Assembly (NCBI GenBank): GCA_963674785.1
Contig: OY771555.1
Span: 960,001 to 1,024,000 of the forward strand
DNA length: 64,000 nucleotides
Reading direction: 5' to 3'
Origin: Caldisericia bacterium
GTDB lineage: Bacteria > Caldisericota > Caldisericia > JAAYUI01
The translations under genes and the position numbers were made by a program. This document shows positions 8,592 to 23,666 of this stretch, piece after piece. Below the pieces are notes generated by a model, which saw only the letters and a list, made by a program, of their open reading frames with translations, made no database searches and was not told the origin of the DNA. Position 1 is the stretch's first letter. Every line of letters starts with the position of its first letter.

Positions 8592-8637
8592 CTAGACCTC
8601 CAAAGCTAGCAACGATCCCCCACTTCTTTATGTTAGG

Positions 8638-8675
8638 AGTCCCTGACGCCCCCTAGTCGGGGACTTACCTTTTTT
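8638..8675 (+). terminator. Rho-independent terminator
   Basis: AGTCCCTGAC-loop-GTCGGGGACT followed by a T-run. Confidence 0.65.
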
Positions 8676-8676
8676 G

Positions 8677-8737
8677 CTACTCTTCAAAGATCTTTTCAAA
8701 ATCACTTCTATTCAATCCGCCCTATGTTGGACTTTTT
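8677..8737 (-). pseudogene. Orphan 3' end of the pyrimidine-dimer-glycosylase-like gene
   Basis: 8678-8707 is identical to 10262-10291 and the similarity extends about 30 nt further; reads KSPT*GGLNRSDFEKIFEE*. Confidence 0.7.
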
Positions 8738-8758
8738 GCGCCTTTTGATCGATAGAGA

Positions 8759-8786
8759 TTGACATAAGAGCCTCGAATCATAAAAT
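8759..8786 (+). promoter_or_regulatory. Putative sigma70 promoter
   Basis: TTGACA-16nt-TAAAAT upstream of the 8849 gene. Confidence 0.6.
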
Positions 8787-8848
8787 ATGTAGGTATTAGG
8801 TTGTCGGGTTTAAATGATTTTGTAGCTGGTTTATACAGGAGGAACATT

Positions 8849-9121
8849 ATGGGTGTGAAGTACATTGTTTTTGATTTGTCAAATGCCACATCTGATGATT
8901 ATAGATTGATCAAAAAGAGAATAGACAAATTTTATCCGGACAATATTCATCCGTTAAATACAACTTATTATGTAGCAACTGACGATTCTTGCAGAGATGT
9001 TTTTTTCAATATCGAGGAAGCATTCATGGGTGCTGATTACAAATTAATTGTTGGTGTACATGCAGGGAGTTATTCATCAGACAACTTAGATGTTGCTTCT
9101 TGGCTGAAAAAGCATAGGTAA
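8849..9121 (+). CDS. Small Cas2/VapD-like ferredoxin-fold protein, 90 aa
   Basis: AGGAGG SD; YIVFDL...DY..I...I....H.L.TTYYV.T...KLIV...WLKK pattern of stand-alone Cas2-like proteins. Confidence 0.6.
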   Translation: MGVKYIVFDLSNATSDDYRLIKKRIDKFYPDNIHPLNTTYYVATDDSCRDVFFNIEEAFMGADYKLIVGVHAGSYSSDNLDVASWLKKHR

Positions 9122-9142
9122 GCGATTTCTTTTAATAAGTGT

Positions 9143-9835
9143 CTATTTTGGGTCGATGTCTTTGACCATATCCAGCTGGACTTTTTGAATCTCCATTAAC
9201 ATTTGCCAGTTGTTTTTTATAAAGCTATCGAGTTTTTCATGTAACATTCTTATCTCAAGTTCAGCTTTCAGGTTTATTTTGTAATCGTTTACAGATCTGA
9301 TTCTATCCCTTTTTTCTTGCCTGTTTTGACTCATCATGATTATTGGAGCTTGCAGGGCTGCAATACATGAGAGAGCGAGGTTTAACAGTATAAATGGGTA
9401 TGGATCGAATCTTCCGAAAATCAAGAAAATAGAATTGCTGATAATCCACAGCAAGATGATGCTACAGAAAATTATTATGAATTTCCAGCTTCCTGCAAAT
9501 GTTGCCAACTTATCTGAAACCATGTCGGCAAAAGTTCTATTTTCGTCTATATCCTCATCAATGTTTTCTGAAATGAGACCTTTTTCCTGTATGCTTTCTA
9601 TTACATCTATGACATCTTTGTTATCACCATCGGTATGTTTTTCTAGAAGCCCCTTTATGTATTTTGCCCTATATTCATTTAGATCTTCTGCACAAATATA
9701 ATCATAATCCTCGATGTTGGGGTAATCCTTTTTTATGACATCAAGAATTTGAATGCTGACGAAAGATAGAGGGAAGAGCCTCTGCTTTGGTTTTCTTGGG
9801 TCACAATTGCATATTATATTCTTTTGTTTTTCCAT
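9143..9835 (-). CDS. DUF1003 domain membrane protein
   Basis: FAGSWKFI, FDPYPFILLNLALSCIAALQAPIIMMSQNRQ, DYKINLKAELEIRMLHEKLD. Confidence 0.92.
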   Translation of the reverse strand: MEKQKNIICNCDPRKPKQRLFPLSFVSIQILDVIKKDYPNIEDYDYICAEDLNEYRAKYIKGLLEKHTDGDNKDVIDVIESIQEKGLISENIDEDIDENRTFADMVSDKLATFAGSWKFIIIFCSIILLWIISNSIFLIFGRFDPYPFILLNLALSCIAALQAPIIMMSQNRQEKRDRIRSVNDYKINLKAELEIRMLHEKLDSFIKNNWQMLMEIQKVQLDMVKDIDPK

Positions 9836-9898
9836 TTATACCTCCATTTATGTGATCCCCTTATTGTAATTAAGAAACTAGTGCAGTAAAATTATAGT

Positions 9899-10213
9899 AT
9901 GAGTCAGTATGAAAGAGTTGTTGACATCGTAAAAGAGCTCAAAAAAGGTCTCAAGTCAAATGATTTAGATGAAAATCAGTTGGGACATCGATTGAATGAA
10001 ATTTTGCTCGAACTCGAATCGCAAGATGTGAAAGAAGATAGTCTGATGGTTTTTGTCCAGAAAATATTGAAAAATCAGTCTGATATTATTGGAAGAATAG
10101 AAAAAATTGAGAGAAGTATCAAATCCAATCGAGACTTGATAGATGAAGTCAATGAAAGAGCTGATAAATATTCTGAACTACTTCTCTCCTTATTTAAAAA
10201 GCAGAACAAATAA
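9899..10213 (+). CDS. Hypothetical coiled-coil protein, probably leaderless
   Basis: 104-aa heptad-rich ORF; TTGTAA-17-TAAAAT ends 6 nt before the ATG. Confidence 0.65.
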   Translation: MSQYERVVDIVKELKKGLKSNDLDENQLGHRLNEILLELESQDVKEDSLMVFVQKILKNQSDIIGRIEKIERSIKSNRDLIDEVNERADKYSELLLSLFKKQNK

Positions 10214-10730
10214 GATAGTGGGTTTTTGAAAGTCTCCCAAGTTTTTTCTGTTGGCTACTGTTACTCTTCAAAGATCTTTTCAAAATCACTTTAGTCAATC
10301 CTCCCCATGTAGGGCTTTTTTTGTCACCCTTCCATTTGGTGATAAGAGTTTTTCTGTATGCTTCAAATGTTGGTAGGTTTTTGTATGGTGTACAGTTGTG
10401 GAAATCATGTTCCTCAAGAACCCAATCCCCCGATTGAATTGATTTGAATCTTTCCTCTGTTTTGTGTAGTTTGCAGTTTGGGAAACGAGTTTTTCGTTCA
10501 TCACACAAAGCCTTCAAATAATCAACTGTCCAGAAGTAGTGCATTCTGCTTTTGAGAAGCCACTTTACAAGTGGATGATTAACATGCGTTGGTTTATATG
10601 GTTTATCAATCAACTCAGGATACGCTGTAGACAGAAGCTGTGCAGACTCAACAATGATTTTATTCAACCTCAAATCATCCAGGTGTTTTGCACAAATCTT
10701 TGGGTTTATGTTTGTTATAAAAAGCTGCAT
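10194..10730 (-). CDS. Pyrimidine dimer DNA glycosylase/endonuclease V-like protein (C-terminus probably frameshifted)
   Basis: CAKHLDD.RLNK.IVESAQLLSTAY, YKPTHVNHP..KW, AYR..L..KW..D...PTW. Confidence 0.72.
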   Translation of the reverse strand: MQLFITNINPKICAKHLDDLRLNKIIVESAQLLSTAYPELIDKPYKPTHVNHPLVKWLLKSRMHYFWTVDYLKALCDERKTRFPNCKLHKTEERFKSIQSGDWVLEEHDFHNCTPYKNLPTFEAYRKTLITKWKGDKKSPTWGGLTKVILKRSLKSNSSQQKKLGRLSKTHYLICSAF

Positions 10731-10735
10731 ATATT

Positions 10736-10773
10736 AAAAAAACACACCTCTTTTTCAAAAGAGGTGTGTTTTT
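10736..10773 (-). terminator. Bidirectional-type Rho-independent terminator
   Basis: AAAAACACACCTCTTTT-loop-AAAAGAGGTGTGTTTTT, directly after the 10786 stop. Confidence 0.75.
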
Positions 10774-10785
10774 AGACAGTATTTT

Positions 10786-10953
10786 TTACTTGTCCGTAAA
10801 CGGGATTATTACAGCAATGATACCTATTACGACCTTCGCAACTGCGTGCCACATTGGCTCAGAGCCTATAGCAAGCGAGGGAATAAGTGCCATTACACCC
10901 ATAATAACCAAGATGATTCCAACAATGACCAGTGATACCTTAGATAAACTCAC
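10786..10953 (-). CDS. 55-aa two-helix membrane microprotein (paralog 1, GTG start)
   Basis: SLSKVSLVIVGIILVIMGVMALIPSLAIGSEPMWHAVAKVVIGIIAVIIPFTDK; AGGGGG SD; conserved paralog next door. Confidence 0.8.
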   Translation of the reverse strand: MSLSKVSLVIVGIILVIMGVMALIPSLAIGSEPMWHAVAKVVIGIIAVIIPFTDK

Positions 10954-10984
10954 AGAATTACCCCCTTTGTCTCTTGATGTTGTA

Positions 10985-11013
10985 ATTATAGCAAGAAAGC
11001 CTGTATGTGTCAA
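10985..11013 (-). promoter_or_regulatory. Consensus sigma70 promoter
   Basis: TTGACA-17nt-TATAAT with extended TG. Confidence 0.85.
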
Positions 11014-11081
11014 ACATTGTTGTGTTTGTTACGCTTGATTTAACGCTGCTTAGCTTACAGAAAACTCTTAGATATGGACAA

Positions 11082-11249
11082 TCATTTATCGGTAAGTGGG
11101 ATTATGATCACAACAAAACCGATCATGATCTTTGCGATGGCATGCCACACTGGTTCAAAACCCAGTGCAAGTGAAGGAATTAGACCCATTATGCCCATTA
11201 TTACTAAAATGATTCCAACGATAACAAGCGTTACTTTAGGTAAACTCAT
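11082..11249 (-). CDS. 55-aa two-helix membrane microprotein (paralog 2)
   Basis: MSLPKVTLVIVGIILVIMGIMGLIPSLALGFEPVWHAIAKIMIGFVVIIIPLTDK; same length as paralog 1. Confidence 0.8.
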   Translation of the reverse strand: MSLPKVTLVIVGIILVIMGIMGLIPSLALGFEPVWHAIAKIMIGFVVIIIPLTDK

Positions 11250-11280
11250 AGAATTGCCTTCTTTATTTTTTAGTAGCTTG

Positions 11281-11309
11281 ATTATAGGTTGAAATGCGGG
11301 ATTTGTCAA
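11281..11309 (-). promoter_or_regulatory. Consensus sigma70 promoter
   Basis: TTGACA-17nt-TATAAT. Confidence 0.85.
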
Positions 11310-11352
11310 AAATTTATCAGTTAGTTATAATCGATACAAAGGGGTAACATCT

Positions 11353-12327
11353 ATGATAAAAAATATGTGGTACGCTGTTTTGGACTCAAAAGAAGTGCCA
11401 AAAGGGAAAATAGTTGGTGTCAAAAGATTGGGTCAAAAACTGGCGTTTTGGAGAAAAAATAACGGGCAGATCGCCTGTATTATTGATAAGTGCTGTCACA
11501 GAGGTGCATCGATTAGTAAAGGAAAGATTGTCTCTGAACGTGCTCAGTGCCCATTTCATGGATTTGAATATGATTCAGATGGAAGGGTGAAGGTGATCCC
11601 GGCAAATGGAAGAACAGCTCAAGTTCCAGAAAGATTTAGAGTTGATGCCTATCCTGTAAAAGAAAAATATGGATTCATCTGGGTATTTTGGGGAATACCA
11701 TCCGGTGAACTGCAGGAGATCCCATTCTTTGATGATCTGAAAGAAGGGTTTTATTATTCTCAGCTAAAAGATAAGTGGAGTGTCGATTACACAAGGTGCA
11801 TCGAAAACCAGATGGATGTAGTCCATGTTCCCTTTGTCCACTACAACACCATTGGCAAATCTGGTAAAACTGTTGTTTATGGCCCAAGGACAAAATGGGA
11901 CGATAACAAACTGACATGGTATGTCAAGAATGTTGTTGATGATTGCAAGGTTAAAGCAAAACCAGCAGATGAGATGGGGGATGAAAAAGACCTCTTTTCT
12001 TTGGAATTTGTTATGCCAAATATATGGCACAACATAATTGCTGATAAAGTCAGAGTCTTTGCTGCATTTGCTCCGATTGATGATGAAAACACAATGATCT
12101 ATCTGCGTTTCTATCAGTCATTCATGCCTATATGGGGTTTAAGGCACATAGTAGGATTTTTCGGAAGGATTTCCAGCAAAATCATCCTCAGACAAGACAA
12201 AAGAGTTGTTGTCACTCAACTACCAAAAAAAAGCTTTATGAAAATGGACGAAAAGCTCATTCCAGGTGACAGACCCATTGCCGAGTTCAGAAGAAAAAGG
12301 GATGAGATGATAAAAGAGAATGAATAG
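11353..12327 (+). CDS. Rieske non-heme iron oxygenase alpha subunit (VanA-like)
   Basis: Rieske CCHRGA...CPFHG; mononuclear Fe motif ENQMDVVHVPFVH; C-terminal LRQD. Confidence 0.9.
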   Translation: MIKNMWYAVLDSKEVPKGKIVGVKRLGQKLAFWRKNNGQIACIIDKCCHRGASISKGKIVSERAQCPFHGFEYDSDGRVKVIPANGRTAQVPERFRVDAYPVKEKYGFIWVFWGIPSGELQEIPFFDDLKEGFYYSQLKDKWSVDYTRCIENQMDVVHVPFVHYNTIGKSGKTVVYGPRTKWDDNKLTWYVKNVVDDCKVKAKPADEMGDEKDLFSLEFVMPNIWHNIIADKVRVFAAFAPIDDENTMIYLRFYQSFMPIWGLRHIVGFFGRISSKIILRQDKRVVVTQLPKKSFMKMDEKLIPGDRPIAEFRRKRDEMIKENE

Positions 12328-12449
12328 ATAATTCAAATCCTTAAAAAGGTGACAGTTAATGATATTGTGGAGGGATTGTAAATCTAGTTTGAGCAAAACT
12401 TTGTAATATTTGACTCCCAGATACTTTCTCCAGGTTCAGCGAATATTTA

Positions 12450-13382
12450 TTAGTTATTTTTTATTTTCGATATTAACTTGTCTACAAGCAATGGATCATC
12501 TGACATTAAGGCTACAATATTTGATAAGCTCAGACAAAATTCTTTGACCTGATTCTTATTGACATTATGCCATATTGGAAGAATAAGATTTTCATCACTA
12601 TCAATATTTTTTGCGAAAATTGATTCGAATTCTGCTTCTCCCCAGCCTTTGTTGTTGAGGAAATTTGGTGAAAGAACCAAAATACAATACTTGGTTTCTC
12701 TTAAGCCTTTTTCAATGCTTTTCCTTAGATTATCTCCAACTCCAAGCGAGAAGTCATCGTACCATACTGGGCAAAACCTCTGGGTTAGTTTTAATGCTAA
12801 ATCGCTTACCAAGACCTCTTTGTCACGAGAGTCGTGAGATATAAAAGCAAGCGGACTTCGATCTTTTGTTGTTGCATCCAAGTAGTTTTTGTCTCTGATA
12901 ACTGGGTATAAACCTGCCTTTTGGCCTAATTCTAAAAGAAAGTCTCTTTTGTTTTTTTCAATATATTTCTCAACATAGATGAACACTCTTTTGTTAAATT
13001 GGGTATCAGATAGTTTTTGATGATCACCAAATCCTTGATGGCCAGAAAGTACATCAAAACCACCATCGGGAGAGTTTAATTCCAGAGGCTTTTCTAGTCC
13101 AATCCCCTCTACTCTAATCTTTTTTCTTCTAGAAATATCATCTTTTCCCAAATCACATTTTTGCACATAATCTGTTTTGTATATTAGGTCGATGTACTCA
13201 GCATAGTGTGGGGTTTCGGGTATATATGACTTAACTAGTCTTGTATTATTATTTATATCGAAACACACTTTTAAAATTGCTGAGGGCAAAGGATTTTTGT
13301 TGTTGTCATTGAAGTTGAGTATTAATCCTTGGGTAAAAAAATTGCTTAAATCTCTTTCAAACAAATCTTTAACAGTATTCAT
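12450..13382 (-). CDS. Protein with unknown N-terminal domain and C-terminal TIR domain
   Basis: AFISHDSRDK, VWYDDFSLGVGDNL..SIEKGL, VLSPNFL...W..AE (catalytic Glu position), ILPIWHNV. Confidence 0.88.
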   Translation of the reverse strand: MNTVKDLFERDLSNFFTQGLILNFNDNNKNPLPSAILKVCFDINNNTRLVKSYIPETPHYAEYIDLIYKTDYVQKCDLGKDDISRRKKIRVEGIGLEKPLELNSPDGGFDVLSGHQGFGDHQKLSDTQFNKRVFIYVEKYIEKNKRDFLLELGQKAGLYPVIRDKNYLDATTKDRSPLAFISHDSRDKEVLVSDLALKLTQRFCPVWYDDFSLGVGDNLRKSIEKGLRETKYCILVLSPNFLNNKGWGEAEFESIFAKNIDSDENLILPIWHNVNKNQVKEFCLSLSNIVALMSDDPLLVDKLISKIKNN

Positions 13383-13405
13383 GCTCCTCCAATATCAATC
13401 AAGTA

Positions 13406-14743
13406 TTACTCCCTAATCTTCCCCAGAAGTTTTGGAATATCTTGATATTCTTCCACCCACAAAACATTCAAACCCAGCTCATTAAAGTCCTGGGTTTCGA
13501 GGTTTTTGGAAATCTCAAAGACCTCTCCTGAAATGTCCGCGGAGTTTTTGTCTTTCATGATGAGATAATGTTTCTTTTCGTGGTTGATGTTTTTCCTGTT
13601 TGAAACATCAAGAAGTCTTCTGAGGTTTGGGTCTGTCAGACTGAGACCAAGGAAAAGACAGGTGTTTTGGCTGTATTTGATGAGCTGAATGATGTTTGAC
13701 CAGCTATAAACATCCATTGTTTTGTTGTGATATGAGTCCTCGGAAAAAACAAGTTCTGTATCTTCTGGAATCTCACCTGTTCGAGGAAGGTACCCGTGAA
13801 CATGATAGATAGGGAGTTCATTCGGGTTGAAACGTACTCCATCATTGTAGATTGGTTTGAAATCAACCCTCAATTTTTGAAGCTCCTCCTCAATTAAGCC
13901 ATCAAAATTGAAAGTGATTATTGAATCAAGTGAACAACCGTTTCTCCTGCTTGGTTTTGAGAGCATCGCAATCTCTCTGATGAGGTCACATGTGCCGTTA
14001 CCACCCTTATATAGTGCAGCTCGAAGCTCCTCATTGAAAAAACTACCGAAATGGTTTTTAAGACTTTTGCCAAGGATGATTGGGGATTGGTTGTAATAGC
14101 TCAGGAAATCAGAGGCTTTTATTGGATTTTCTATGTTTAGGGCAAGTTGAGAGATCATCCGGTCGAGAAGGTCTTCTATCAGGTTGTTCCAGGTGGGAAT
14201 TCCTGCGCTAACAGAAACCCCAGCTCCACATACAAGCGACAAAGCACCATCATGGAAGGCATCTTGAAGATTTTCAATATATAGGTCATTGATGTTGTCT
14301 GGTCTTTTGATGAGTATTTCAGGTGGTGGACTTGCTTGTTCTCCACTTTCGAGTTTGCTTGCAAATTTGGCGAATGTTTCAAGCTGTTTATCAAAGTTTT
14401 CAGATAGGTCGATATAGACATTTGAAAACATCATCGGTGGAATCTCTGACATATCGATTTTATCAAACGTCAGAACATAAAGCTTCCTTGAATCAAATGT
14501 TCCGCCGAAATAATTGAGATATGTCAACCATACCTCTTTTGTGTTCATGTGCATTGTCTCGGCACTCAGAACAAGAAGCACCATCTCTGCTTTTTCATAA
14601 ACATCAAGAATCTCAGATGGTGTTTCCTCGTCTGGGTTTACATCAGAGACCTTAAAAACAGTATGCCCAAAGGCCTGGAGTTTTTCGGCTACTTGGTCAA
14701 CCCTGGCTTCGTCCTTGTGACCGTATTCAATGAATATATTCAT
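13406..14743 (-). CDS. TIR-like (N-terminal) / SIR2-family (C-terminal) fusion protein
   Basis: N-terminal NIFIEYGHKD...LLVLS...IPP....YIDLS (TIR-like). C-terminal GAGVSVSAGIPTW, ITFNFD, YHVHGYLP, CLFLGLSLTDPNLRRLL (SIR2_2). Confidence 0.85.
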   Translation of the reverse strand: MNIFIEYGHKDEARVDQVAEKLQAFGHTVFKVSDVNPDEETPSEILDVYEKAEMVLLVLSAETMHMNTKEVWLTYLNYFGGTFDSRKLYVLTFDKIDMSEIPPMMFSNVYIDLSENFDKQLETFAKFASKLESGEQASPPPEILIKRPDNINDLYIENLQDAFHDGALSLVCGAGVSVSAGIPTWNNLIEDLLDRMISQLALNIENPIKASDFLSYYNQSPIILGKSLKNHFGSFFNEELRAALYKGGNGTCDLIREIAMLSKPSRRNGCSLDSIITFNFDGLIEEELQKLRVDFKPIYNDGVRFNPNELPIYHVHGYLPRTGEIPEDTELVFSEDSYHNKTMDVYSWSNIIQLIKYSQNTCLFLGLSLTDPNLRRLLDVSNRKNINHEKKHYLIMKDKNSADISGEVFEISKNLETQDFNELGLNVLWVEEYQDIPKLLGKIRE

Positions 14744-14749
14744 GTATTC

Positions 14750-14778
14750 ATTTTAGTCACTTGAACATACAATCGCAA
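14750..14778 (-). promoter_or_regulatory. Putative leaderless promoter of the TIR-SIR2/TIR operon
   Basis: TTGCGA-17nt-TAAAAT-6nt-ATG, overlapping the end of the GNAT gene. Confidence 0.6.
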
Positions 14779-15608
14779 ATGTCAGCGATTGGTTTATATC
14801 CAATTTTTTGGTAGATGCTATTTGATGTGGGGTTTGCAAGGTCTGTAAAGAGTGTACAGAATTTTTTCCCACTTTTTAAGATTTCTTTTGATAGTTCTGA
14901 GACAACCGCTGTTGCGTAACCTTTTCCTCTTTCATCAGGCGGAGTATAAACTGATGCGACACATTCGCTGTTTGGTGTTGGTCTTGTCCTTGCTGCCATT
15001 GAGACCGGTTTATCCTTTTCCCAGAGATAAAAGAAACCTGACTTTATCTTGTCTTCAAGGTGATTTGAATCATCGGGAGTATTGTTACTATTTTCTCCAA
15101 AGCAATCGATCATGAATTTCTTTGTCCAATCAAGACACAGGTCAAAGTCATCCATGGTTGCGACACGAAAATTCCCTTCTGGATAATCACGTTTTGCAAC
15201 CTCTGTGAGTTTGAATATTCTCATACTCATGACAATTTTTAATTTTCTGCCAGTTTTTTCACAGTAGTTTTTTGCAAAAGTTTCTGCAATATTTTTTTCT
15301 GCAATCACTCCTGGGACATACCAGTTTGAGTTTCCGATATTTTTTGTGAGTGTTTCAACTGCTTCTAATGAATTATTTCCACATGCAATGATCTGGATTT
15401 TAAATGGTGGAGTCATCATAACAACAAGCTCAATTCCTGAACTTGAAGATACTGTTGCCAGTAAAGGTTTTGTTCCGTAGTAGTTGGGATCAGCTTTAAG
15501 AAGTTCTGCAATTCCAAGCATCAAGCCGTTTTCCGCTTCACTTGCAAGAAGGATTTCTCTAGTAGTATCTAAAAAATTATTTATATTATTGTATTCTTTA
15601 TACTCCAT
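14757..15608 (-). CDS. GNAT family N-acetyltransferase
   Basis: VYTPPDERGKGYA acetyl-CoA motif; LFTDLANPTSNSIYQKIGY. Confidence 0.9.
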   Translation of the reverse strand: MEYKEYNNINNFLDTTREILLASEAENGLMLGIAELLKADPNYYGTKPLLATVSSSSGIELVVMMTPPFKIQIIACGNNSLEAVETLTKNIGNSNWYVPGVIAEKNIAETFAKNYCEKTGRKLKIVMSMRIFKLTEVAKRDYPEGNFRVATMDDFDLCLDWTKKFMIDCFGENSNNTPDDSNHLEDKIKSGFFYLWEKDKPVSMAARTRPTPNSECVASVYTPPDERGKGYATAVVSELSKEILKSGKKFCTLFTDLANPTSNSIYQKIGYKPIADICDCMFK

Positions 15609-15611
15609 GTT

Positions 15612-16565
15612 TTATTCCACCTTTTCTACATTGTCTGCCGGGAATAAGTCTGGGGTAGACAGATATCTCTCACCTGTATCATACATGAAACAAACTATTG
15701 TTTTTCCAACAAATTCTGGTCTTTCTGAAATCTGTCCCGCAACCCAAACAGATGCTCCTGATGTTGGCCCAACAAGAATACCCTCTTTTCTTGCAATTAA
15801 TCTTGCTGTTTCAAAGGCGACATCATTTTCTACAAGGATGATTTCATCAAGATTTTGTCTTGATCTTTTGAAGTTGTCTGTAATAAATCCTGGGCCAATA
15901 CCGATAAGTTTGTGAGGAGCTTGAGCTCCACCTGAATAGACTGGACTTGCTGCAGGCTCAAAACCAATGATTTTTATGTTTGGGTTTTTGCTTTTGAGAA
16001 ATCTTGATAGACCATCAAATGTCCCGCTTGTTCCAAGACCAATTATTGCAACATCGATGTTGCCGTTAGTTTGTTCCCAAATCTCTGGTCCTGTTGTTGT
16101 TTCGTGTGCTTTTCCGTTGTTTTGGTTTCCGTGTTGATTGAGGAAAAATGTCGTATTTGGATTTTTATCACAATACTTTATAGCTCTTTCTCTTGCACCT
16201 TTTGTGTGTTCAGCAGCGGGGGTAAGCATTACTTTTGCGCCATATGCACAAAGGATTTGCTGCCTCTCGACACTGCAAAGCTCACTCATGAAGATACGAG
16301 TTTTATAATCTAGCATCGCTCCCAAGCTTGCAATCGCAATTGCAGTATTACCACTGCTTGCCTCAACAACCTCTGTTTCTGAGGTTATTTTGCCCTCAGC
16401 CATCACTGTTTTTATCATTGATCTGACAGCTCTATCCTTTACTGATGTTGGATTGCAGCGTTCCATTTTAGCAAGGATTCTTGCTTTAGGATCAACAAAA
16501 ACTTTTGTCAGTTCAAAAAGTGGAGTATTTCCAATCAAGTCACATGCATCAGTAATGATATTCAT
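15612..16565 (-). CDS. cysK: Cysteine synthase (O-acetylserine sulfhydrylase family)
   Basis: IGNTPL, NPTSVKDR (PLP Lys), EASSGNTA, HETTTGPEIW, GTSGT, GIGPGF, DTGERYLST. Confidence 0.9.
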   Translation of the reverse strand: MNIITDACDLIGNTPLFELTKVFVDPKARILAKMERCNPTSVKDRAVRSMIKTVMAEGKITSETEVVEASSGNTAIAIASLGAMLDYKTRIFMSELCSVERQQILCAYGAKVMLTPAAEHTKGARERAIKYCDKNPNTTFFLNQHGNQNNGKAHETTTGPEIWEQTNGNIDVAIIGLGTSGTFDGLSRFLKSKNPNIKIIGFEPAASPVYSGGAQAPHKLIGIGPGFITDNFKRSRQNLDEIILVENDVAFETARLIARKEGILVGPTSGASVWVAGQISERPEFVGKTIVCFMYDTGERYLSTPDLFPADNVEKVE

Positions 16566-16679
16566 AAAGCTCTCCTTATTTTTTTGTAATTGGGAGAAGA
16601 GTCTAATGATAAAATGTCAAAATGCAAGCGGAATGGGCTGGTTTACAAATTCATATATTTTTATATACTTCTTCCTGGT

Positions 16680-19600
16680 ATGGAATCCTCTGACAATTTG
16701 ATAAAACTAGCTTTTTCAATGCAATCAAACAAGGGCGTTTATGCTCTCCTTCTTGGTTCTGGGATTTCAATTTCGGCAGGTATCCCAACAGGTTGGGGAG
16801 TTGTTTGCGACCTTATAAATAAACTCGCAAGACTGCATGGTGAAAACCCTGGCGAGAAGTGTTGGGAATGGTACGAAAAAAAGTTTGATAAACCAGCAGA
16901 CTATTCAGATCTCCTTGATTTCCTGGCAGATACTCCCACCCAAAGGGCGAAACTTCTAACATCATATTTTGAGCCAAATGATGAAGAAAAAAAGTCAGGT
17001 AAAAAACTTCCAACACCTGCACATAAGGCGATTGCAAAGCTAATTGAACAGAAGTTTGTGAAGGTCATTATTACAACAAATTTCGATAGACTTCTTGAAA
17101 AAGCACTTTCTGATTTGAATATCAATCCAAGAGTTGTTTCGTCTTCAGATGATATTGAAGGTCTACCATCTCTTGTTCATATGGAAAGACCACTAATAAT
17201 CAAAGTAAACGGTGATTATCTTGATTCAAGAATAAAAAATACTCCAGAGGAGCTTGAAAACTATACTTCTGAAATGAACCAACTTTTGACTGAGATTTTT
17301 TCAGAGTATGGATTGATAATATCTGGTTGGTCAGCAAGATATGATTCAGCCTTAATTGAGTGTTATGAGCAGGCTAAAAACACTGATTTTATAACGTGTT
17401 GGATAGATCCATTTGATTTATCAGAGCCAGCTTTGAAGCTTTTGTCATTGAGAAATGGAAGATTTATCAAAGAAAAAGCAGATATCTTTTTCCCAGAACT
17501 TGCAAAAAAGTTACGCTGCATTTATGAAAGATCAGATAAACTAGATGTTCCGAACAACCTTCCTGAGGGTCTTTCATCTTTTATTGGAAGAGAAAAAGAG
17601 ATTTCTGAAATCCTTGAGCTTGAAAAAAAACATAGGATGATAACTCTTGTTGGACCTGCAGGGGTTGGTAAAACAAGATTGGCAATTGAGATCGCAAAAA
17701 GACTTTCAAGCTCAAGCTATTCTAAAATATGGTTTATCAATCTTTCACTCGTTTCTGAAAAAATCCAAGTATATCAAATAATCTTTGAGGCATTGGGTAT
17801 TCGATTAGATTATACTGAGTCTTCTATTGATGCTATCATCAATGCAATAAAAAACACAAAGTGTTTGATAATTTTCGATAACTGTGAACAGGTAATAAAC
17901 ATTGTCTCACAGATTGCAAAAAAGCTTTTAAATGAAACAAAACAGCTAAAGATAATTGCAACAAGCAGGGAGACTCTAAACATTGAGATCGAAGCTAGGT
18001 GGTACACTCCTGTTATGGAATTCCCAGAACGATCTGATGAGGAATTCTCAAAAATTCTTGAATACTCAAGTATAAAGCTATTTTATGAACGAGCAAAAAC
18101 TGTATCATCAGATTTTGTCTTAGATGAAAACAATATCCGAAGTGTTGTCAATATTTGTATCAAACTTGATGGCTTACCGCTTGCAATCGAACTTGCATCA
18201 GCAAGAACAAAAGTTCTTTCTGTAAAACAAATTGAGAAAAAACTTGCAAGAAGATTCAAGCTATTAACAAAAAGTTTTAGTAGAGTCCCGGATAGACAAA
18301 AAACTCTTAAAGGTGCAATCGATTGGAGTTTTGATTTGTTATCTGATGATGAAAAAAAACTTCTTACTAGAGTATCTGTTTTTACTGGAGGATTTTCTCT
18401 GGAATCATCAGTTGCTGTTTTTACGGGAAGAATTTATAAGGGTGATACTGGGACAGATAAATATTTTGAATTTGATGAATTTGAAGTACTTGATCTGATA
18501 CAGCAATTAGTATCAAAATCTTTGATCATTTCAAAAAAATCAGTTGATGGGAATATCAGGTATAGCCTTCTCGAATCAATAAAGAAATATGGAATGGAAA
18601 AGCTAGAAACCTTTGGTGAAATGGTCTTGATCCATGACAGGCATTCCCGATGGTTTGATTTTTGGATAAACTCACACACAGAGAAACTCAGAACCAGTGA
18701 ACAATTCCTTTGGCAAAAGAAGATTGAATTTGAAAATGAAAACATCTTAGCGGCTCTGGATTACTTGTATGAGACAAAACGATTGACTAGATGTGCAAGG
18801 ATAATAAGTGGAGTTTCAATTTTCTGGGATTTGGTGTATTACAATGAACTTGGATACACTTGGACAAAAAAGGTTATTGAAACAGATCTTATTGATGATG
18901 ATGGACTTCTTGGTTTGATGTATAATTGTAATGGGGCTTTTTTGTTCAACTTAGGAAGGGACAATGAGGCAATTAGTTCTCATGAAAAAGCATTAAAGCT
19001 ATTTGAAAAAACAGGAAATAAGGAAAGAATTTCGATGGTTTCACAAAATCTTGCACTTTCCTATAAAAAAGTTGGAAAGATTTCAAAATGCGTTCCTTTG
19101 TTAGAAAAAGCAATAAAGGCAAGTATTGATGCAGAAAATGATTATTTCTTAGCTGTAAACAGAATGAATCTTGGCGATGTATATTTTTTCCAAGGTGACT
19201 TTGAGAAATCAATGGAACAATTTGAAAAGTCTATATCGATTTTTAGGAAGCTTTCAGATCAAAGAATGATTTTAATGGTTCAGAATAATTTTGCATCTGC
19301 ATACTATAACCTTCTAAATCTACCGAAGATGAAAGAAGTTCTTGATGAGATGTACCCGCTTGCTAAGTCAATCAGTTATACTGAATATGTTGATGTTTTG
19401 AGGCTGTTGTGTGATTATTATCTCATATTGGGAGAGTATGATAAAGCAACGAATCAATATAAACTGATGGAAAAGCTGAGAAAAGAAAATCCAACACAAT
19501 ACATTATCGAGCCGATCGAATATTCTTACTCTGCAATAATGATGGAAAAGGGTAATTTCGATGATGCATATGAAATATATGTAAATGCTGGACTTTTTGA

Positions 19601-20120
19601 TATGACAAAAGATTTCAGTATCAAAGAACTAATGCTGATGCTCTATTATTCAATTTCTATGAAGGATAAAAAGTTAATAGGTGAAATTATTGAAAAAATA
19701 TCAACCGATAAGAAAATAATCCCATCAAAACTAGATTTAATAAGGTTTGTTGGTTACAAAGCGACCTTTAATTATCTAGATGGAAAACTGTCTGAAGCGC
19801 TAGTTACCCTAAAAAAAGTAATCTTTGACTTTTATAAAATTGAGGCATATTTTGATCTTATCAAAATACTCGAGATGACGTCAATTGTTTTTTGTGAATT
19901 GGGTGATTTTTCGGTTTCTGCAATGATTCTTGGAAAAATGAAACAATTAAGATCTTTTTTCGGAACCCCACTTTCTCCAGCGAGGAAACCAGATATTGAA
20001 AAGTTAAAAGCTGATTTGAACCATGAAATCGGAGATGATTTTGAAAAAATGATGGTCAAAGGTTCAAAGCTTACGACTGAGGAAATAATTAAAGTTGTAG
20101 GTTGTGATTTAGTGAACTGA
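16680..20120 (+). CDS. SIR2-STAND NTPase (NB-ARC-like)-TPR protein, paralog 1 (NLR/Avs-like)
   Basis: SIR2 GSGISISAGIPTGW, ITTNFD; NLP..LSSFIGRE; Walker A GPAGVGKT; Walker B LIIFDNCE; LDGLPLAIELA; winged helix; C-terminal TPRs. Start at ATG 16680 by alignment to the paralog. Confidence 0.88.
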   Translation: MESSDNLIKLAFSMQSNKGVYALLLGSGISISAGIPTGWGVVCDLINKLARLHGENPGEKCWEWYEKKFDKPADYSDLLDFLADTPTQRAKLLTSYFEPNDEEKKSGKKLPTPAHKAIAKLIEQKFVKVIITTNFDRLLEKALSDLNINPRVVSSSDDIEGLPSLVHMERPLIIKVNGDYLDSRIKNTPEELENYTSEMNQLLTEIFSEYGLIISGWSARYDSALIECYEQAKNTDFITCWIDPFDLSEPALKLLSLRNGRFIKEKADIFFPELAKKLRCIYERSDKLDVPNNLPEGLSSFIGREKEISEILELEKKHRMITLVGPAGVGKTRLAIEIAKRLSSSSYSKIWFINLSLVSEKIQVYQIIFEALGIRLDYTESSIDAIINAIKNTKCLIIFDNCEQVINIVSQIAKKLLNETKQLKIIATSRETLNIEIEARWYTPVMEFPERSDEEFSKILEYSSIKLFYERAKTVSSDFVLDENNIRSVVNICIKLDGLPLAIELASARTKVLSVKQIEKKLARRFKLLTKSFSRVPDRQKTLKGAIDWSFDLLSDDEKKLLTRVSVFTGGFSLESSVAVFTGRIYKGDTGTDKYFEFDEFEVLDLIQQLVSKSLIISKKSVDGNIRYSLLESIKKYGMEKLETFGEMVLIHDRHSRWFDFWINSHTEKLRTSEQFLWQKKIEFENENILAALDYLYETKRLTRCARIISGVSIFWDLVYYNELGYTWTKKVIETDLIDDDGLLGLMYNCNGAFLFNLGRDNEAISSHEKALKLFEKTGNKERISMVSQNLALSYKKVGKISKCVPLLEKAIKASIDAENDYFLAVNRMNLGDVYFFQGDFEKSMEQFEKSISIFRKLSDQRMILMVQNNFASAYYNLLNLPKMKEVLDEMYPLAKSISYTEYVDVLRLLCDYYLILGEYDKATNQYKLMEKLRKENPTQYIIEPIEYSYSAIMMEKGNFDDAYEIYVNAGLFDMTKDFSIKELMLMLYYSISMKDKKLIGEIIEKISTDKKIIPSKLDLIRFVGYKATFNYLDGKLSEALVTLKKVIFDFYKIEAYFDLIKILEMTSIVFCELGDFSVSAMILGKMKQLRSFFGTPLSPARKPDIEKLKADLNHEIGDDFEKMMVKGSKLTTEEIIKVVGCDLVN
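16701..17300 (+). repeat. 600-bp near-identical direct repeat of 20196..20795 (SIR2-coding region)
   Basis: 200 codons with identical amino acids; only synonymous differences seen by eye. Confidence 0.9.
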
Positions 20121-20174
20121 TAAAAAACCAAGTCAGTTTACTTTTTTCTACATTTTCATATACTCTCACCTAGT

Positions 20175-23100
20175 ATGGAAGTCTCTGATAATACTATAAA
20201 ACTAGCATTTTCTATGCAATCGAATAAGGGTGTGTATGCTCTTCTGCTTGGTTCAGGAATATCAATATCAGCAGGCATCCCAACAGGTTGGGGAGTTGTT
20301 TGTGACCTTATAAATAAACTCGCAAGGCTGCATGGTGAAAACCCTGGCGAGAAATGCTGGGAATGGTACGAAAAAAAGTTTGACAAACCCGCAGACTATT
20401 CAGACCTCCTTGATTTCTTGGCAGATACTCCCACCCAAAGAGCAAAACTACTGACTTCATACTTTGAGCCAAATGATGAAGAAAAAAAGTCAGGCAAAAA
20501 ACTTCCAACACCTGCACACAAGGCGATTGCAAAACTTATTGAGCAGAAGTTTGTGAAGGTCATTATTACAACAAATTTCGATAGGCTTCTTGAAAAAGCA
20601 CTTTCTGATTTAAATATCAATCCAAGAGTTGTTTCGTCTTCAGATGATATTGAAGGTCTGCCATCTCTTGTTCATATGGAAAGACCACTAATAATCAAAG
20701 TAAACGGTGATTATCTTGATTCAAGAATAAAAAATACTCCAGAGGAGCTTGAAAACTATACTTCTGAAATGAACCAACTTTTGACTGAGATTTTTTTAAA
20801 GTATGGGTTGATACTCTCTGGATGGTCAGGCAAATATGATACTGCACTCATTGAGTGTTATAAAAATGGTATCAATAAAGAGTTTTCAACCTATTGGGTT
20901 GACCCTGGTGGATTATCAGACTCTGCAAGTGAACTTTTGTCTTTGAGGGATGGAAAGTTTGTAAAAGCAACATCAGATGAGTTTTTCTCTGATCTTGAAC
21001 ATAAGCTCATGAATAATGAGGTTCAAGAGACAAAAGAGACCTATGAGGTTCGAAATAATCTACCTGAAGACCTTTCATCATTCATTGGACGAAAAAAAGA
21101 GATTGATGAGATTAAATCTATTCTTGAAGATAAAAGACTGATCACAATCCTTGGTATCGGTGGTTCTGGAAAAACAAGACTTGTAATTGAGGCCGCAAAA
21201 AGAAACACTGATAAATTCACAGATGGTATCTGTTTTGTTAGTCTTTCTGATATTTCTGAAAAAATCCAGTTGGTTCAATCTATTTCTACATTTTTGAATG
21301 TTCAAGGTGACTCCGAAAAATCTCCGACTGAATTGATAATTGATCATATTTCAGATAAAAAAATGCTTTTAATCCTTGATAGTTGTGAGCTTGTTTCATC
21401 TTCGCTTGCAAAGATTTCAGAAAGGTTTTTGGAGAATTGCCCAAACTTGAGAATTATTGCTACAACAACTGAATCACTCGAGATCAAAGGTGAAGAGGTT
21501 TGGAGAATTCCATCACTTGTAGTTCCACAATCGAATTCAATTAAACTTGATGATTTTGAAAAATTTTCAGCAGTAAAATTATTTGTTGAAAGAGCAAGAT
21601 CTGTTGCAACTGATTTTACCCTTTCAGAAGAAAATTCGGACGCAGTTTGTGATATTGTGAGAAGACTCGATGGTTTACCGCTAGCAATTGAACTTGCTGC
21701 TGCAAGGGTGAAGGTTCTTTCACCAGACCAGATAAACCAAAAATTGAATAAAAGATTTAAGCTTTTGACAAAGGGTTCAAGAGATGCAACCGATAGACAG
21801 AAAACCCTTCGGAAAACAATTGATTGGAGTTATGATCTCCTCTCTTCTGATGAGAGAACATTGCTCAATAGGATGTCAGTTTTTTCTGAAGGATTCACAT
21901 TAGAGTCTTCAACCGCTATTGCCACAGGTGACTTTGAGTTCAAGTTAGATGACAAAGTACTCGCTGATTCAATTTCTGAAGATGCTGAAACTTTTGATGA
22001 TGATTTTTGTGAATTTGATGAGTTTGAAATCCTTGACCTTATTGATGGGCTTCACTCAAAATCACTTATTGTTACAAATAAAACTGCTAAAGGTGAAACA
22101 AGATATTATCTCCTAAACACGATAAGAGAATATGCAAAAGAAAAGCTTGTTGAGTCAGGCGAGTATGAATTTATAAGAAAAAGATACCTTAGGTGGTTCG
22201 CCACATGGGTAAACACCAATAGAAATAATCTGAGAGGTAAAGACCAAGCACTTTGGTTAGCAAGGTTTGAGTCAGAAAATAAAAATGTTCTTTCTGCAAT
22301 TGATTTTGCCTTCGAGTCAAATCAAGATGGATACTTGATAATCCTGACTTCCTCGATGTGCATTTTTTGGAATGTTATGGGTTATCATAGATTGGGTTTG
22401 GAAAAGACAAAGCAGGCGATTGAAAGAATCAATATCAAATCAAAAACAGCGGGTTCGCTTTGTTTGAATTCAGGTGTGTTTGCACATTGGCTTGGCGATT
22501 TTGATGAGGCTATCAGGGTTACAAATAAATCAATTGGAATACTTGAAGAAATTGATGCTCAGGATTCATTACTTTTTTCCTATCAGAATTTGGCAATCTA
22601 TTATCAGGGGAATGGAAATATAGATAAGAGCTTTGAGTTATATGAAAAAACAATAAAGCTCAGCACAGAATTGAAACAATACCATATGCTTGCGACAAGT
22701 CAGATGAATCTTGGTTTGAGTTATTTTGATGTTGGAAGATATGATGATGCCTTGAGAGAATTGAAGACCTCTCTTGCTTCATTTGAAAAGATCTCCGACT
22801 ATAGGATGATTTGTTGGACAAATAGATTAATATCATCGATCCATATTGACAGATTGAATCTCAAAGAAGCTGAAAGGTTTATTTCCGAGGCTATGAAATA
22901 TGGTGGAAAGTCTGGGGTTAACCTCGAGATAATTCTAACTTTGAGGAAAAAGGCTCAGTTTAATGTTCTGATTGGGAAATATGATGAAGCGATTGAATGC
23001 AATAATAAAATAAAACAGCTTTCAAAAAAACAGCTTCAAGATCTTGGAATGGATTATTATTATGATAGCTCAATCGAGATTTACATGTCGATGAATGATA

Positions 23101-23666
23101 TGGAAAAAACAAAGTATTATTTAGAAAAACTTGGTCATCTGAAAGAAGATGAAAAGTTTGGTTACAGAGAAAATGATATTAGCATATTGCTTACACTTGC
23201 CAAATATTACATTTTCAATCGAGAGCTAAATAACGCAAAACTTATTTTCGATAAAATTGATGAAAGAAAAAAAGTTCTTACAAAATCGTCTTTCATAAAT
23301 AGATATATGTTATATAAGGGGATGTATCTCCATTTGAAAAATGATTTTATGGAATCGACAGAATGCCTGCTAGGTGTTTTAAAAAACCATATGGAGTCGA
23401 AATCCATGTTACAGGTAATTGTTTCGCTGGAATTTCTATCCATGAGCTTTGGAAATATGAAGAAATATAAGGAAGCATCGCTTATTATCGGCAAAGCAAT
23501 TCAATTGAGAAATAAGTTTGGTGTCCCAAATGACCCCCTTATTAAACCTTACATTGATGAAATTATTGCCAACTTAAGCGAGTTTTCCGGAGCAACTTTT
23601 GAAAAATATGGAGATCGCGGAGCAAACATGTCCCTTGATGAGATTATCGAGTTTATATCTCAATAA
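20175..23666 (+). CDS. SIR2-STAND NTPase-TPR protein, paralog 2
   Basis: Same SIR2 domain; Walker A GIGGSGKT; Walker B LLILDSCE; LDGLPLAIELAAAR; diverged TPR region. Confidence 0.9.
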   Translation: MEVSDNTIKLAFSMQSNKGVYALLLGSGISISAGIPTGWGVVCDLINKLARLHGENPGEKCWEWYEKKFDKPADYSDLLDFLADTPTQRAKLLTSYFEPNDEEKKSGKKLPTPAHKAIAKLIEQKFVKVIITTNFDRLLEKALSDLNINPRVVSSSDDIEGLPSLVHMERPLIIKVNGDYLDSRIKNTPEELENYTSEMNQLLTEIFLKYGLILSGWSGKYDTALIECYKNGINKEFSTYWVDPGGLSDSASELLSLRDGKFVKATSDEFFSDLEHKLMNNEVQETKETYEVRNNLPEDLSSFIGRKKEIDEIKSILEDKRLITILGIGGSGKTRLVIEAAKRNTDKFTDGICFVSLSDISEKIQLVQSISTFLNVQGDSEKSPTELIIDHISDKKMLLILDSCELVSSSLAKISERFLENCPNLRIIATTTESLEIKGEEVWRIPSLVVPQSNSIKLDDFEKFSAVKLFVERARSVATDFTLSEENSDAVCDIVRRLDGLPLAIELAAARVKVLSPDQINQKLNKRFKLLTKGSRDATDRQKTLRKTIDWSYDLLSSDERTLLNRMSVFSEGFTLESSTAIATGDFEFKLDDKVLADSISEDAETFDDDFCEFDEFEILDLIDGLHSKSLIVTNKTAKGETRYYLLNTIREYAKEKLVESGEYEFIRKRYLRWFATWVNTNRNNLRGKDQALWLARFESENKNVLSAIDFAFESNQDGYLIILTSSMCIFWNVMGYHRLGLEKTKQAIERINIKSKTAGSLCLNSGVFAHWLGDFDEAIRVTNKSIGILEEIDAQDSLLFSYQNLAIYYQGNGNIDKSFELYEKTIKLSTELKQYHMLATSQMNLGLSYFDVGRYDDALRELKTSLASFEKISDYRMICWTNRLISSIHIDRLNLKEAERFISEAMKYGGKSGVNLEIILTLRKKAQFNVLIGKYDEAIECNNKIKQLSKKQLQDLGMDYYYDSSIEIYMSMNDMEKTKYYLEKLGHLKEDEKFGYRENDISILLTLAKYYIFNRELNNAKLIFDKIDERKKVLTKSSFINRYMLYKGMYLHLKNDFMESTECLLGVLKNHMESKSMLQVIVSLEFLSMSFGNMKKYKEASLIIGKAIQLRNKFGVPNDPLIKPYIDEIIANLSEFSGATFEKYGDRGANMSLDEIIEFISQ

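Follow-up and report, generated by a model that had tools for sequence, protein, structure and literature searches.

Genes A and B

The DNA analysed here is a 64,000-nt stretch of a Caldisericia bacterium (contig OY771555.1, positions 960,001 to 1,024,000, assembly GCA_963674785.1), referred to as the window, in whose own coordinates positions are given. It contains two adjacent genes, termed A and B, which lie on the + strand with a spacer of 54 nt between them and are predicted to encode SIR2 + NB-ARC + TPR proteins of the STAND type (NLR-like and putatively anti-phage). Over 200 codons of the N-terminal SIR2 part, here called the head, both genes encode the same residues and differ at silent positions only, and the remaining parts have diverged. 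The explanation preferred here, with moderate confidence, is that approximately codons 35-207 were converted between two paralogues that are not sisters, and that only silent changes have survived afterwards under a stricter purifying selection.

16680-20120, + strand: gene A, open reading frame with its ATG chosen at 16680; 1146 aa, SIR2 head, NB-ARC NTPase and TPR sensor (Pfam SIR2_2, NB-ARC and TPR_12)
20175-23666, + strand: gene B, open reading frame; 1163 aa, with the architecture of A by Pfam; positional orthologue of the single gene in the congener G003, as judged from downstream synteny and the tree

The NB-ARC domain is recognised by Pfam with 41.0 and 40.2 bits in A and B (cut-off 23.5 bits), and the motifs of an NB-ARC-type STAND NTPase are visible in the translations (GPAGVGKT / GIGGSGKT, LIIFD / LLILD, and LDGLPLAIELA). 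The AlphaFold2 model of A, built on a 74-sequence alignment, has a mean pLDDT of 92 and a pTM of 0.77, with most of the SIR2 fold above a pLDDT of 90. The nearest solved folds to this model, according to Foldseek, are the STAND-TPR protein 6mfv, EfAvs5/AVAST5 (9jap, 9nc9), DSR2, Apaf-1 and plant resistosomes, and the matches to Apaf-1 and 6mfv fit the NTPase assignment. The head, in turn, finds the SIR2-APAZ protein of SPARSA (8y80); SIR2-APAZ is also the solved protein closest to it in sequence (E 1.6e-13, residues 23-263 aligned to 22-277). Residues N134 and D136, from the strand TTNFD, and H115 are invariant across the 74 head sequences and are candidate residues for a SIR2 NADase.

The PADLOC models matching A and B at E <= 0.001 are PDC-S65, Aga_SIR2, pAgo, SIR2, IetA and mad8, and no Avs model is among them. 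The first ~285 residues match the N-terminal half of PDC-S65 (profile positions 15-296 of 592) with 408 and 411 bits, and the C-terminal half of this profile of ~592 positions is unmatched in both proteins.

A protein-identical tract in three strata

When A and B are compared codon by codon from their ATGs, codons 8-207 of A (16701-17300) and B (20196-20795) translate into one and the same run of 200 residues, and all 36 differences between them are synonymous (0 non-synonymous). Each of the 36 differing codons carries one silent base (25 transitions and 11 transversions), and these sites show no direction in codon usage (20 vs 14, p=0.6). The nearest replacements flanking the tract are found at codons 3 and 7, and at codons 208/209, directly after LLTEIF. 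By the Nei-Gojobori method, the 200 codons hold S=134.5 silent and N=465.5 replacement sites, with a proportion of silent differences (pS) of 0.268, dS=0.33 and dN=0. The initial annotation, based on the letters alone, had counted about 36 silent differences by eye, 14 of them in the first 27 codons and none in the last 45, and this count was exact. The silent differences define the following strata, in which P0003 and P0004 denote two near-orthologous proteins used for comparison.

16701-16781, + strand: A codons 8-34, NAD-binding loop region; 14 silent differences, pS 0.65, no recent homogenisation
16782-17165, + strand: A codons 35-162, read as the older converted stratum; 22 silent and 0 replacement differences, pS 0.26
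17166-17301, + strand: A codons 163-207, read as the youngest stratum; no silent difference (pS 0), a 136-nt run identical to B that ends at the first base of codon 208
20196-20795, + strand: B codons 8-207, with the counterparts of the three strata at 20196-20276, 20277-20660 and 20661-20795
17301-17540, + strand: A codons 208-287, remaining third of the SIR2 fold and linker helix; 49% identical to B
20796-21035, + strand: B codons 208-287, nearer to P0003/P0004 (57-58%) than to A (49%)

The patchiness was evaluated by 100,000 weighted permutations of the silent differences. A longest difference-free run of at least 45 codons has a permutation P of 0.0015, at least 14 differences within the first 27 codons a P of 6e-5, and zero differences within the last 45 codons a P of 2e-5. 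Past codon 207, the identity between A and B is 49% (codons 208-290), 48% (NB-ARC), 44% and finally 26% (TPR), and over codons 208-278 dS is 0.93 and dN 0.31. The abrupt drop after LLTEIF and the low identity of the TPRs, both described in the initial annotation, are therefore real features of the pair.

The same annotation had taken the identical tract for the SIR2 domain, as a common output module, and this view does not hold. In the AlphaFold2 model of A, the break at 207/208 falls inside the helix 197-209, and it is followed by the strands 211-215, 239-242 and 261-263 of the Rossmann fold, up to the end of the SIR2 fold at ~263, and then by the linker helix 267-287. The family-invariant residues G211, G216, W217, S218, D222 and L225 of the 74-sequence alignment all lie past the break, where A and B agree at only 49% of positions. 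As modelled, the shared piece is about the first 70% of the SIR2 fold, not the entire domain. Because the break sits in the middle of the fold, with strands and invariant residues after it, the edge looks like the end of a recombination tract, or of usable homology, rather than a module or functional border.

The comparison with relatives shows a conflict between the head and the rest of the proteins. Over residues 8-207, A and B are 100% identical to each other and 76-78% identical to P0003/P0004, whereas over the segments of residues 208-1146 B has a higher identity with P0003/P0004 (57/55/52/38%) than it has with A (49/48/44/26%). A maximum-likelihood tree built from residues 291-1146 recovers (B,(P0003,P0004)) with support 100/99 and places A outside, and the approximately unbiased (AU) test rejects a clade of A and B (p=0.015). 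Synteny agrees with this placement: in G003 the orthologue is flanked by the counterparts of the Lcl_C-domain gene and the EamA transporter found here, and the locus of B shares EamA and two small genes downstream with the G003 locus (L015). The part of the window from ~8600 to 20174 (~11.5 kb, including gene A) has no counterpart at this locus (L015 4819-4914), and is either a variable insert or a deletion in G003.

Silent sites tell the same story for most of the tract. Towards the G003 orthologue they are saturated in codons 35-207 (pS 0.78-0.99), while between A and B they reach only 0.26 and 0. In codons 8-34, on the other hand, the value of 0.65 between A and B is like those to the G003 orthologue (0.66 and 0.51). 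This region is the GSGxSxxAGIPTGW NAD loop, nearly unchanged in P0003/P0004 as well, and its protein identity needs no recent conversion, because the loop is hyperconserved and its silent divergence is as high as to the orthologue.

The pair thus shows the hallmarks of concerted evolution, with paralogues closer than orthologues within the tract and the reverse in the flanks, sharp edges and a tree conflict, and gene conversion of codons ~35-207 is well supported by the sequence comparison. The patchy gene conversion proposed in the initial annotation stands for codons 35-207, with their tree conflict and significant strata, and falls for codons 8-34.

Constraint on the shared piece and its possible causes

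Whether divergence at silent sites only is unusual was judged against a family of 73 distinct homologous coding sequences, using all pairs with pS 0.1-0.5 over the same columns. This set leaves out three coding sequences with internal stops, nine exact duplicates, and matches in which query residues 12-255 are not covered continuously. Over the same 200 codons, the ratio dN/dS (omega) of the 38 family pairs is 0.070-0.199 (median 0.113), the non-synonymous share is at least 0.28, and none of the 38 is free of replacements; homologues at similar silent divergence carry 12-29 of them. For codons 35-162 alone, omega is 0.073-0.28 in 35 family pairs, again with no pair (0/35) lacking replacements. 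Between A and B, omega has an upper 95% bound of ~0.02 when the whole tract is taken, and of 0.03-0.04 when only codons 35-162 are. The probability of 36:0 from the lowest family share is 0.72^36 = 7e-6, and that of the fairer 22:0 in codons 35-162 is 0.74^22 = 1.3e-3 at the lowest family share and ~8e-5 at the median share.

Nine other in-frame paralogue pairs of the same genome (85-99% DNA identity) have non-synonymous shares of 0.27-0.66, so the pattern is not a property of the organism; five of 14 repeat pairs had been dropped for stops in their best frame, and the A/B pair itself lies below the 85% filter. Nor is it a property of this head in the clade, since P0003 and P0004 differ at 8% of residues 8-207. 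Their heads, 92% identical, are no more conserved than their sensors, likewise 92%. The initial annotation had considered that orthologues from other species might be equally invariant here, which would leave no need for a constraint specific to the paralogues; the congener's gene, at 76-78% over residues 8-207, is far from invariant. The strong purifying selection that it invoked is upheld, and goes beyond the family norm (omega 0.07-0.20) and beyond the nine same-genome pairs (27-66% non-synonymous). Taken together, the comparisons point to the A/B pair as an outlier, with the shared piece probably under far stricter purifying selection than the same piece elsewhere or than other paralogues of this genome. 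The piece is free of amino-acid change over a silent divergence of ~0.3, and elsewhere it evolves ~3-10 times faster in protein.

Several points weigh against this interpretation. The tract of codons 8-207 is bounded by the nearest replacements, so that its lack of non-synonymous changes is partly by construction, and 14 of the 36 silent changes belong to a loop with almost no variation in any case. What is truly anomalous is the 22:0 of codons 35-162, and its p, set against the family pair under the strongest constraint, is ~1e-3, which is small but not extremely so. The pairs of the family are interrelated, not independent, and come from other phyla, and the omega background at comparable dS likewise comes from pairs outside this clade. 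No homologous DNA above 71% identity was found in 32 genome-contig loci, 63 metagenome-contig loci, 61 relatives' genomes and 84 genomes of the class, and no homologous protein above 72% identity among proteins of 630-2006 aa and 157-503 aa. The A+B group submitted to the AU test was named after the identities had been seen. Short-read contigs break within the repeat, so that the variants at codons 107-162 are phased by the assembly only, which leaves the counts unaffected. The donor and direction of conversion, finally, are not recoverable: compared with G003, eight sites have the codon of A, nine that of B and seven neither, and polarising the silent differences failed because silent sites are saturated against this outgroup.

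Under the preferred explanation, B would be the resident gene, the positional orthologue of the congener's single gene, and A an older paralogue located in the ~11.5-kb stretch missing from the congener's locus. After the lineage of B had split from the congener's gene, non-reciprocal homologous recombination would have homogenised about codons 35-207 in at least two episodes, the older now at pS 0.26 and the younger, codons 163-207, still identical in nucleotides. The conversion tracts would stop where similarity collapses, within the helix of the SIR2 fold, and codons 8-34 would be identical in protein merely because the NAD-binding loop hardly changes anywhere. Since the older episode, only silent changes would have survived (omega below ~0.02-0.04). 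As the cause of this strictness, we infer that one protein piece must work in two different bodies, perhaps in mixed SIR2 assemblies. By analogy with Avs5 and SPARSA, each TPR sensor may bind a different phage product, upon which the NB-ARC parts would oligomerise, the SIR2 heads would assemble and NAD+ would be destroyed.

A more specific cause, nested in this explanation and no alternative to conversion, would be mutual compatibility, the idea of the initial annotation, with the heads staying identical because those of A and B join the same assembly, through mixed SIR2 oligomers or cross-seeding, or because they bind a partner in common. The constraint is indeed specific to the pair, given the replacements tolerated by family pairs and same-genome paralogues and the 8% of head residues at which P0003 and P0004 differ, and the nearest solved SIR2 heads are described as active only as oligomers with large SIR2-SIR2 interfaces (PMC11452484, PMC11897194). 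However, an interface cannot account for all 200 residues, which include the helical small domain, the most variable part in the family, and in the final third of the SIR2 fold A and B agree at only 49% of positions. The interface residues described for SPARSA (N244/N245, H249 and R296-Q297, in SPARSA numbering) lie on the C-terminal side of the fold (PMC11452484). The NB-ARC parts are 48% identical, making co-oligomerisation through them doubtful, and no partner gene is evident in the locus. This cause is considered possible, with the balance tilted against it.

The usual view of NLR-like sensors in bacteria is that each is a single-gene system complete in itself, with effector heads that are freely swapped. 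A rather speculative and somewhat unlikely extension of mutual compatibility is that A and B form a bacterial counterpart of an NLR pair or network, with heads kept identical since both enter the same SIR2 assembly. An activated sensor would then recruit the heads of the other, amplifying the signal, or would at least not be poisoned by them; conversion would reset compatibility, and the silent drift would act as a clock of enforced identity. If mutual compatibility proved true, this would be the first hint of bacterial STAND immune receptors cooperating through mixed effector assemblies, as plant and animal NLRs do. If the cause were only the use of one piece in two bodies, conversion would still couple the evolution of immune paralogues. 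In either case, the A/B pair illustrates that the ends of conversion tracts need not respect domain borders.

Other explanations were weighed as well. A moderately strong but otherwise ordinary constraint combined with chance is improbable: a lineage omega near or slightly below the family minimum could give 22-36 silent changes without replacement by a lucky draw, and its case is helped by the p of ~1e-3 that is left once the hyperconserved loop is removed and the codon range is recognised as chosen by eye, and by one family pair (L017/L020) with 10:0 in codons 8-34. Nevertheless, 0/38 family pairs and 0/9 same-genome pairs come near, and codons 35-162 alone give p ~8e-5 against the median family share. 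Quite improbable is a young conversion followed by accelerated silent change, in which synonymous mutations would be favoured for breaking a 600-bp direct repeat able to delete the body of A, so that the age would be overstated and the absence of replacements unremarkable. In its favour, 3.5 kb separates the two direct repeats, every change present leaves the protein intact, and a modifier lowering the deletion rate would be selectable in principle in large populations. Even spacing of the silent changes was rejected, though, as the gaps between the 22 differences in codons 35-162 (mean 5.7, variance 19.7) are no more even than random placement would give; moreover, the 136-nt perfect run persists, and other same-genome tandem pairs with shared modules have ordinary shares (6:3, 4:3 and 12.8:25.2).

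An old duplication without any conversion, in which the head stayed under uniform and extreme purifying selection, as in histones, and the rest diverged, is very hard to sustain. Birth-and-death evolution under strong purifying selection does yield protein-identical, silent-diverged paralogues, such as those of histones and ubiquitin, and codons 8-34 do behave so. It is contradicted by the tree conflict, given that the head is 76-78% identical to the congener's gene and yet the body of B is the closest relative of that gene, by a pS in codons 35-207 of 0.26 and 0 where the comparison with the orthologue is saturated, by strata significant in permutations, and by the family omega of 0.07-0.2. 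Least credible of all, to the point of being practically negligible, is an artefact of assembly or polishing, in the form of a chimeric or mis-phased repeat. The initial annotation had named chimerism as a threat to its observation, and the short-read contigs do break inside the repeat, with neither head spanned by a single contig. Contigs of the public runs nevertheless agree with the assembly where they cover it. Over 16400-16997 and 17272-20492, those of X1 and X2 match it with 0 other letters, a 3221-nt contig joins the body of A to the head of B, and the junction of B (20398-21148) is bridged, at 2 other letters, by a contig of X3, from a second study; the coverage by runs X3 and X4 is limited to small parts of the stretch. 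Both head variants occur in the runs, and a 334-nt record of X2 has three other letters that are exactly the variants of copy A at codons 137, 146 and 162. Errors or mis-phasing would not produce silent-only differences, and a phase swap leaves the count unchanged.

Related systems and genomic surroundings

Domain-restricted concerted evolution of tandem prokaryotic paralogues is known from mtrA-1/mtrA-2 of methanogens (PMC4632066; survey in PMC6053082). As in that case, A and B are adjacent, one part is homogenised by conversion and the other part differs, and the paralogues are closer than orthologues in the converted part. Unlike those metabolic subunits, A and B are predicted immune sensors and their tract ends inside a fold instead of at a domain border; an accumulation of many silent changes without replacements since conversion, as found in A/B, is not described in the abstracts of these two sources (PMC4632066, PMC6053082).

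Among defence systems, Avs5 (AVAST type 5; EfAvs5, PMC11897194; 9jap, 9nc9) has the same layout of N-terminal SIR2, central STAND NTPase and C-terminal sensor. The matches of EfAvs5 to the model of A have Foldseek E values of 2e-11 and 2e-10, but with 11-13% identity and low TM-scores (0.18-0.26). In A and B, unlike Avs5, the NTPase is of the NB-ARC/Apaf-1 type with a GLPL motif, the sensor is TPR, and the head comes from another SIR2 subfamily. By analogy, A and B would be expected to work like Avs5, with trigger-induced oligomerisation turning on NAD+ hydrolysis. SPARSA SIR2-APAZ (8in8, 8jkz, 8y80; PMC11452484) is nearest to the head by sequence among solved proteins; by fold, 8y80_E matches at an rmsd of 4.7 over 320 columns and 20% identity, and the PADLOC Aga_SIR2 models match the head too. 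In contrast with SPARSA, A and B have no APAZ or Argonaute partner and carry the head fused to a STAND NTPase. NADase activity is reported to depend on SIR2-SIR2 contacts in both SPARSA (PMC11452484) and EfAvs5 (PMC11897194). The PDC-S65 proteins, single SIR2 proteins of ~590 aa to which the A/B head matches, are spread over bacteria and archaea at ~40-55% identity, with mosaic recombination; in A and B their second half is replaced by NB-ARC + TPR.

Histones and ubiquitin are protein-identical paralogues with silent divergence, a pattern read as strong selection on co-adapted members of an assembly plus gene conversion. Yeast histone and fungal ribosomal-protein paralogues are also said to be replacement-free and to differ at silent sites. 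Unlike the near-invariant histones and ubiquitin, the A/B head is 76-78% identical to the congener's gene and ~50% across the family, so orthologues are not as invariant as the paralogues, and the family omega (0.07-0.2) is not that of uniform purifying selection. In the literature searched (subscription journals and supplements excepted), no account of anti-phage STAND paralogues undergoing gene conversion or evolving in concert was found, nor any mention of PDC-S65. Domain-restricted conversion between tandem prokaryotic paralogues and replacement-free paralogues are both already known, and nothing of the kind was found for anti-phage STAND genes in the literature searched.

Both genes are preceded by promoter-like elements.

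16642-16669, + strand: promoter-like TTTACA-16-TATACT, ending 10 nt before the ATG of A; 10/12 matches
20137-20164, + strand: promoter-like TTTACT-16-TATACT, ending 10 nt before the ATG of B, within the 54-nt spacer; 9/12 matches

These matching elements, TTTAC(A/T)-16-TATACT, are present as the initial annotation had given them, although promoter-like sites in the whole scan are not above shuffles (26 found, 28.4 expected). No Shine-Dalgarno sequence is visible before A or B (16642-16682, 20137-20177). A -10-like hexamer ending 10 nt before the ATG without a Shine-Dalgarno sequence suggests near-leaderless mRNAs for both genes, which are probably promoted separately. The upstream region of the G003 orthologue differs, with TTGCAA-17-TATAAT ~90 nt before the first conserved codons.

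Two further predicted NADase-type defence genes are located 2 kb upstream of A (12450-14743, - strand). One encodes 310 aa with a C-terminal TIR domain (PADLOC PDC-S66, ThsB-like) and the other 445 aa with TIR and SIR2 domains (ThsA-like SIR2). With these TIR/SIR2 genes so near to A and B, the region can be described as a small defence island. The ~11.5-kb stretch contains, besides gene A and the TIR genes, a Rieske protein, a GNAT protein and a 317-aa open reading frame that is CysK-like by eye from its translation. In G003, the Lcl_C-domain gene (window 8013-8592) directly precedes the orthologue of B. Two genes upstream of that orthologue, L015 60-3455 encodes a product longer than 1132 aa that combines a protein kinase domain and TPR repeats with a weak P-loop match to AAA_16 (25.6 bits, under its cut-off of 32.6 bits), and that may be another STAND-type sensor with a different head.

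The initial annotation had also suggested searching the genome for more copies of the head on other sensors; in the own genome (2.23 Mb, one contig), only A and B carry it. Outside the window, two tandem pairs of large surface proteins of 1200-1460 aa with beta-propeller and Ig-like domains (G000:C1:1134602-1141861 and 1665502-1674333; L110 and L111) have a common Cu_amine_oxidN1 module of 500-720 nt at 98.6-98.8% DNA identity, the remainder being different. These pairs, which are among the nine in-frame paralogue pairs compared above, have ordinary replacement shares (6:3 and 4:3), and they show that homogenisation confined to one module is found more than once in this genome.

Mosaic heads from gut and other metagenomes (L081/L086, L091/L092/L040, L078/L036 and L049/L017) show silent divergence that jumps several-fold at single points (~codons 55, 72 and 213), which indicates that members of the family often recombine inside this SIR2 head. 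Codon 207 was rejected as a breakpoint fixed for the whole family, since mosaic pairs break at ~codons 55, 72, 213 and 244. Another within-genome case of head homogenisation is provided by two PDC-S65-type genes on different contigs of one Hydrogenedentota metagenome-assembled genome (L029 4995-6722 and L030 2797-4119), which are nucleotide-identical over the first ~244 codons and then divergent, the L030 gene ending early at 440 aa.

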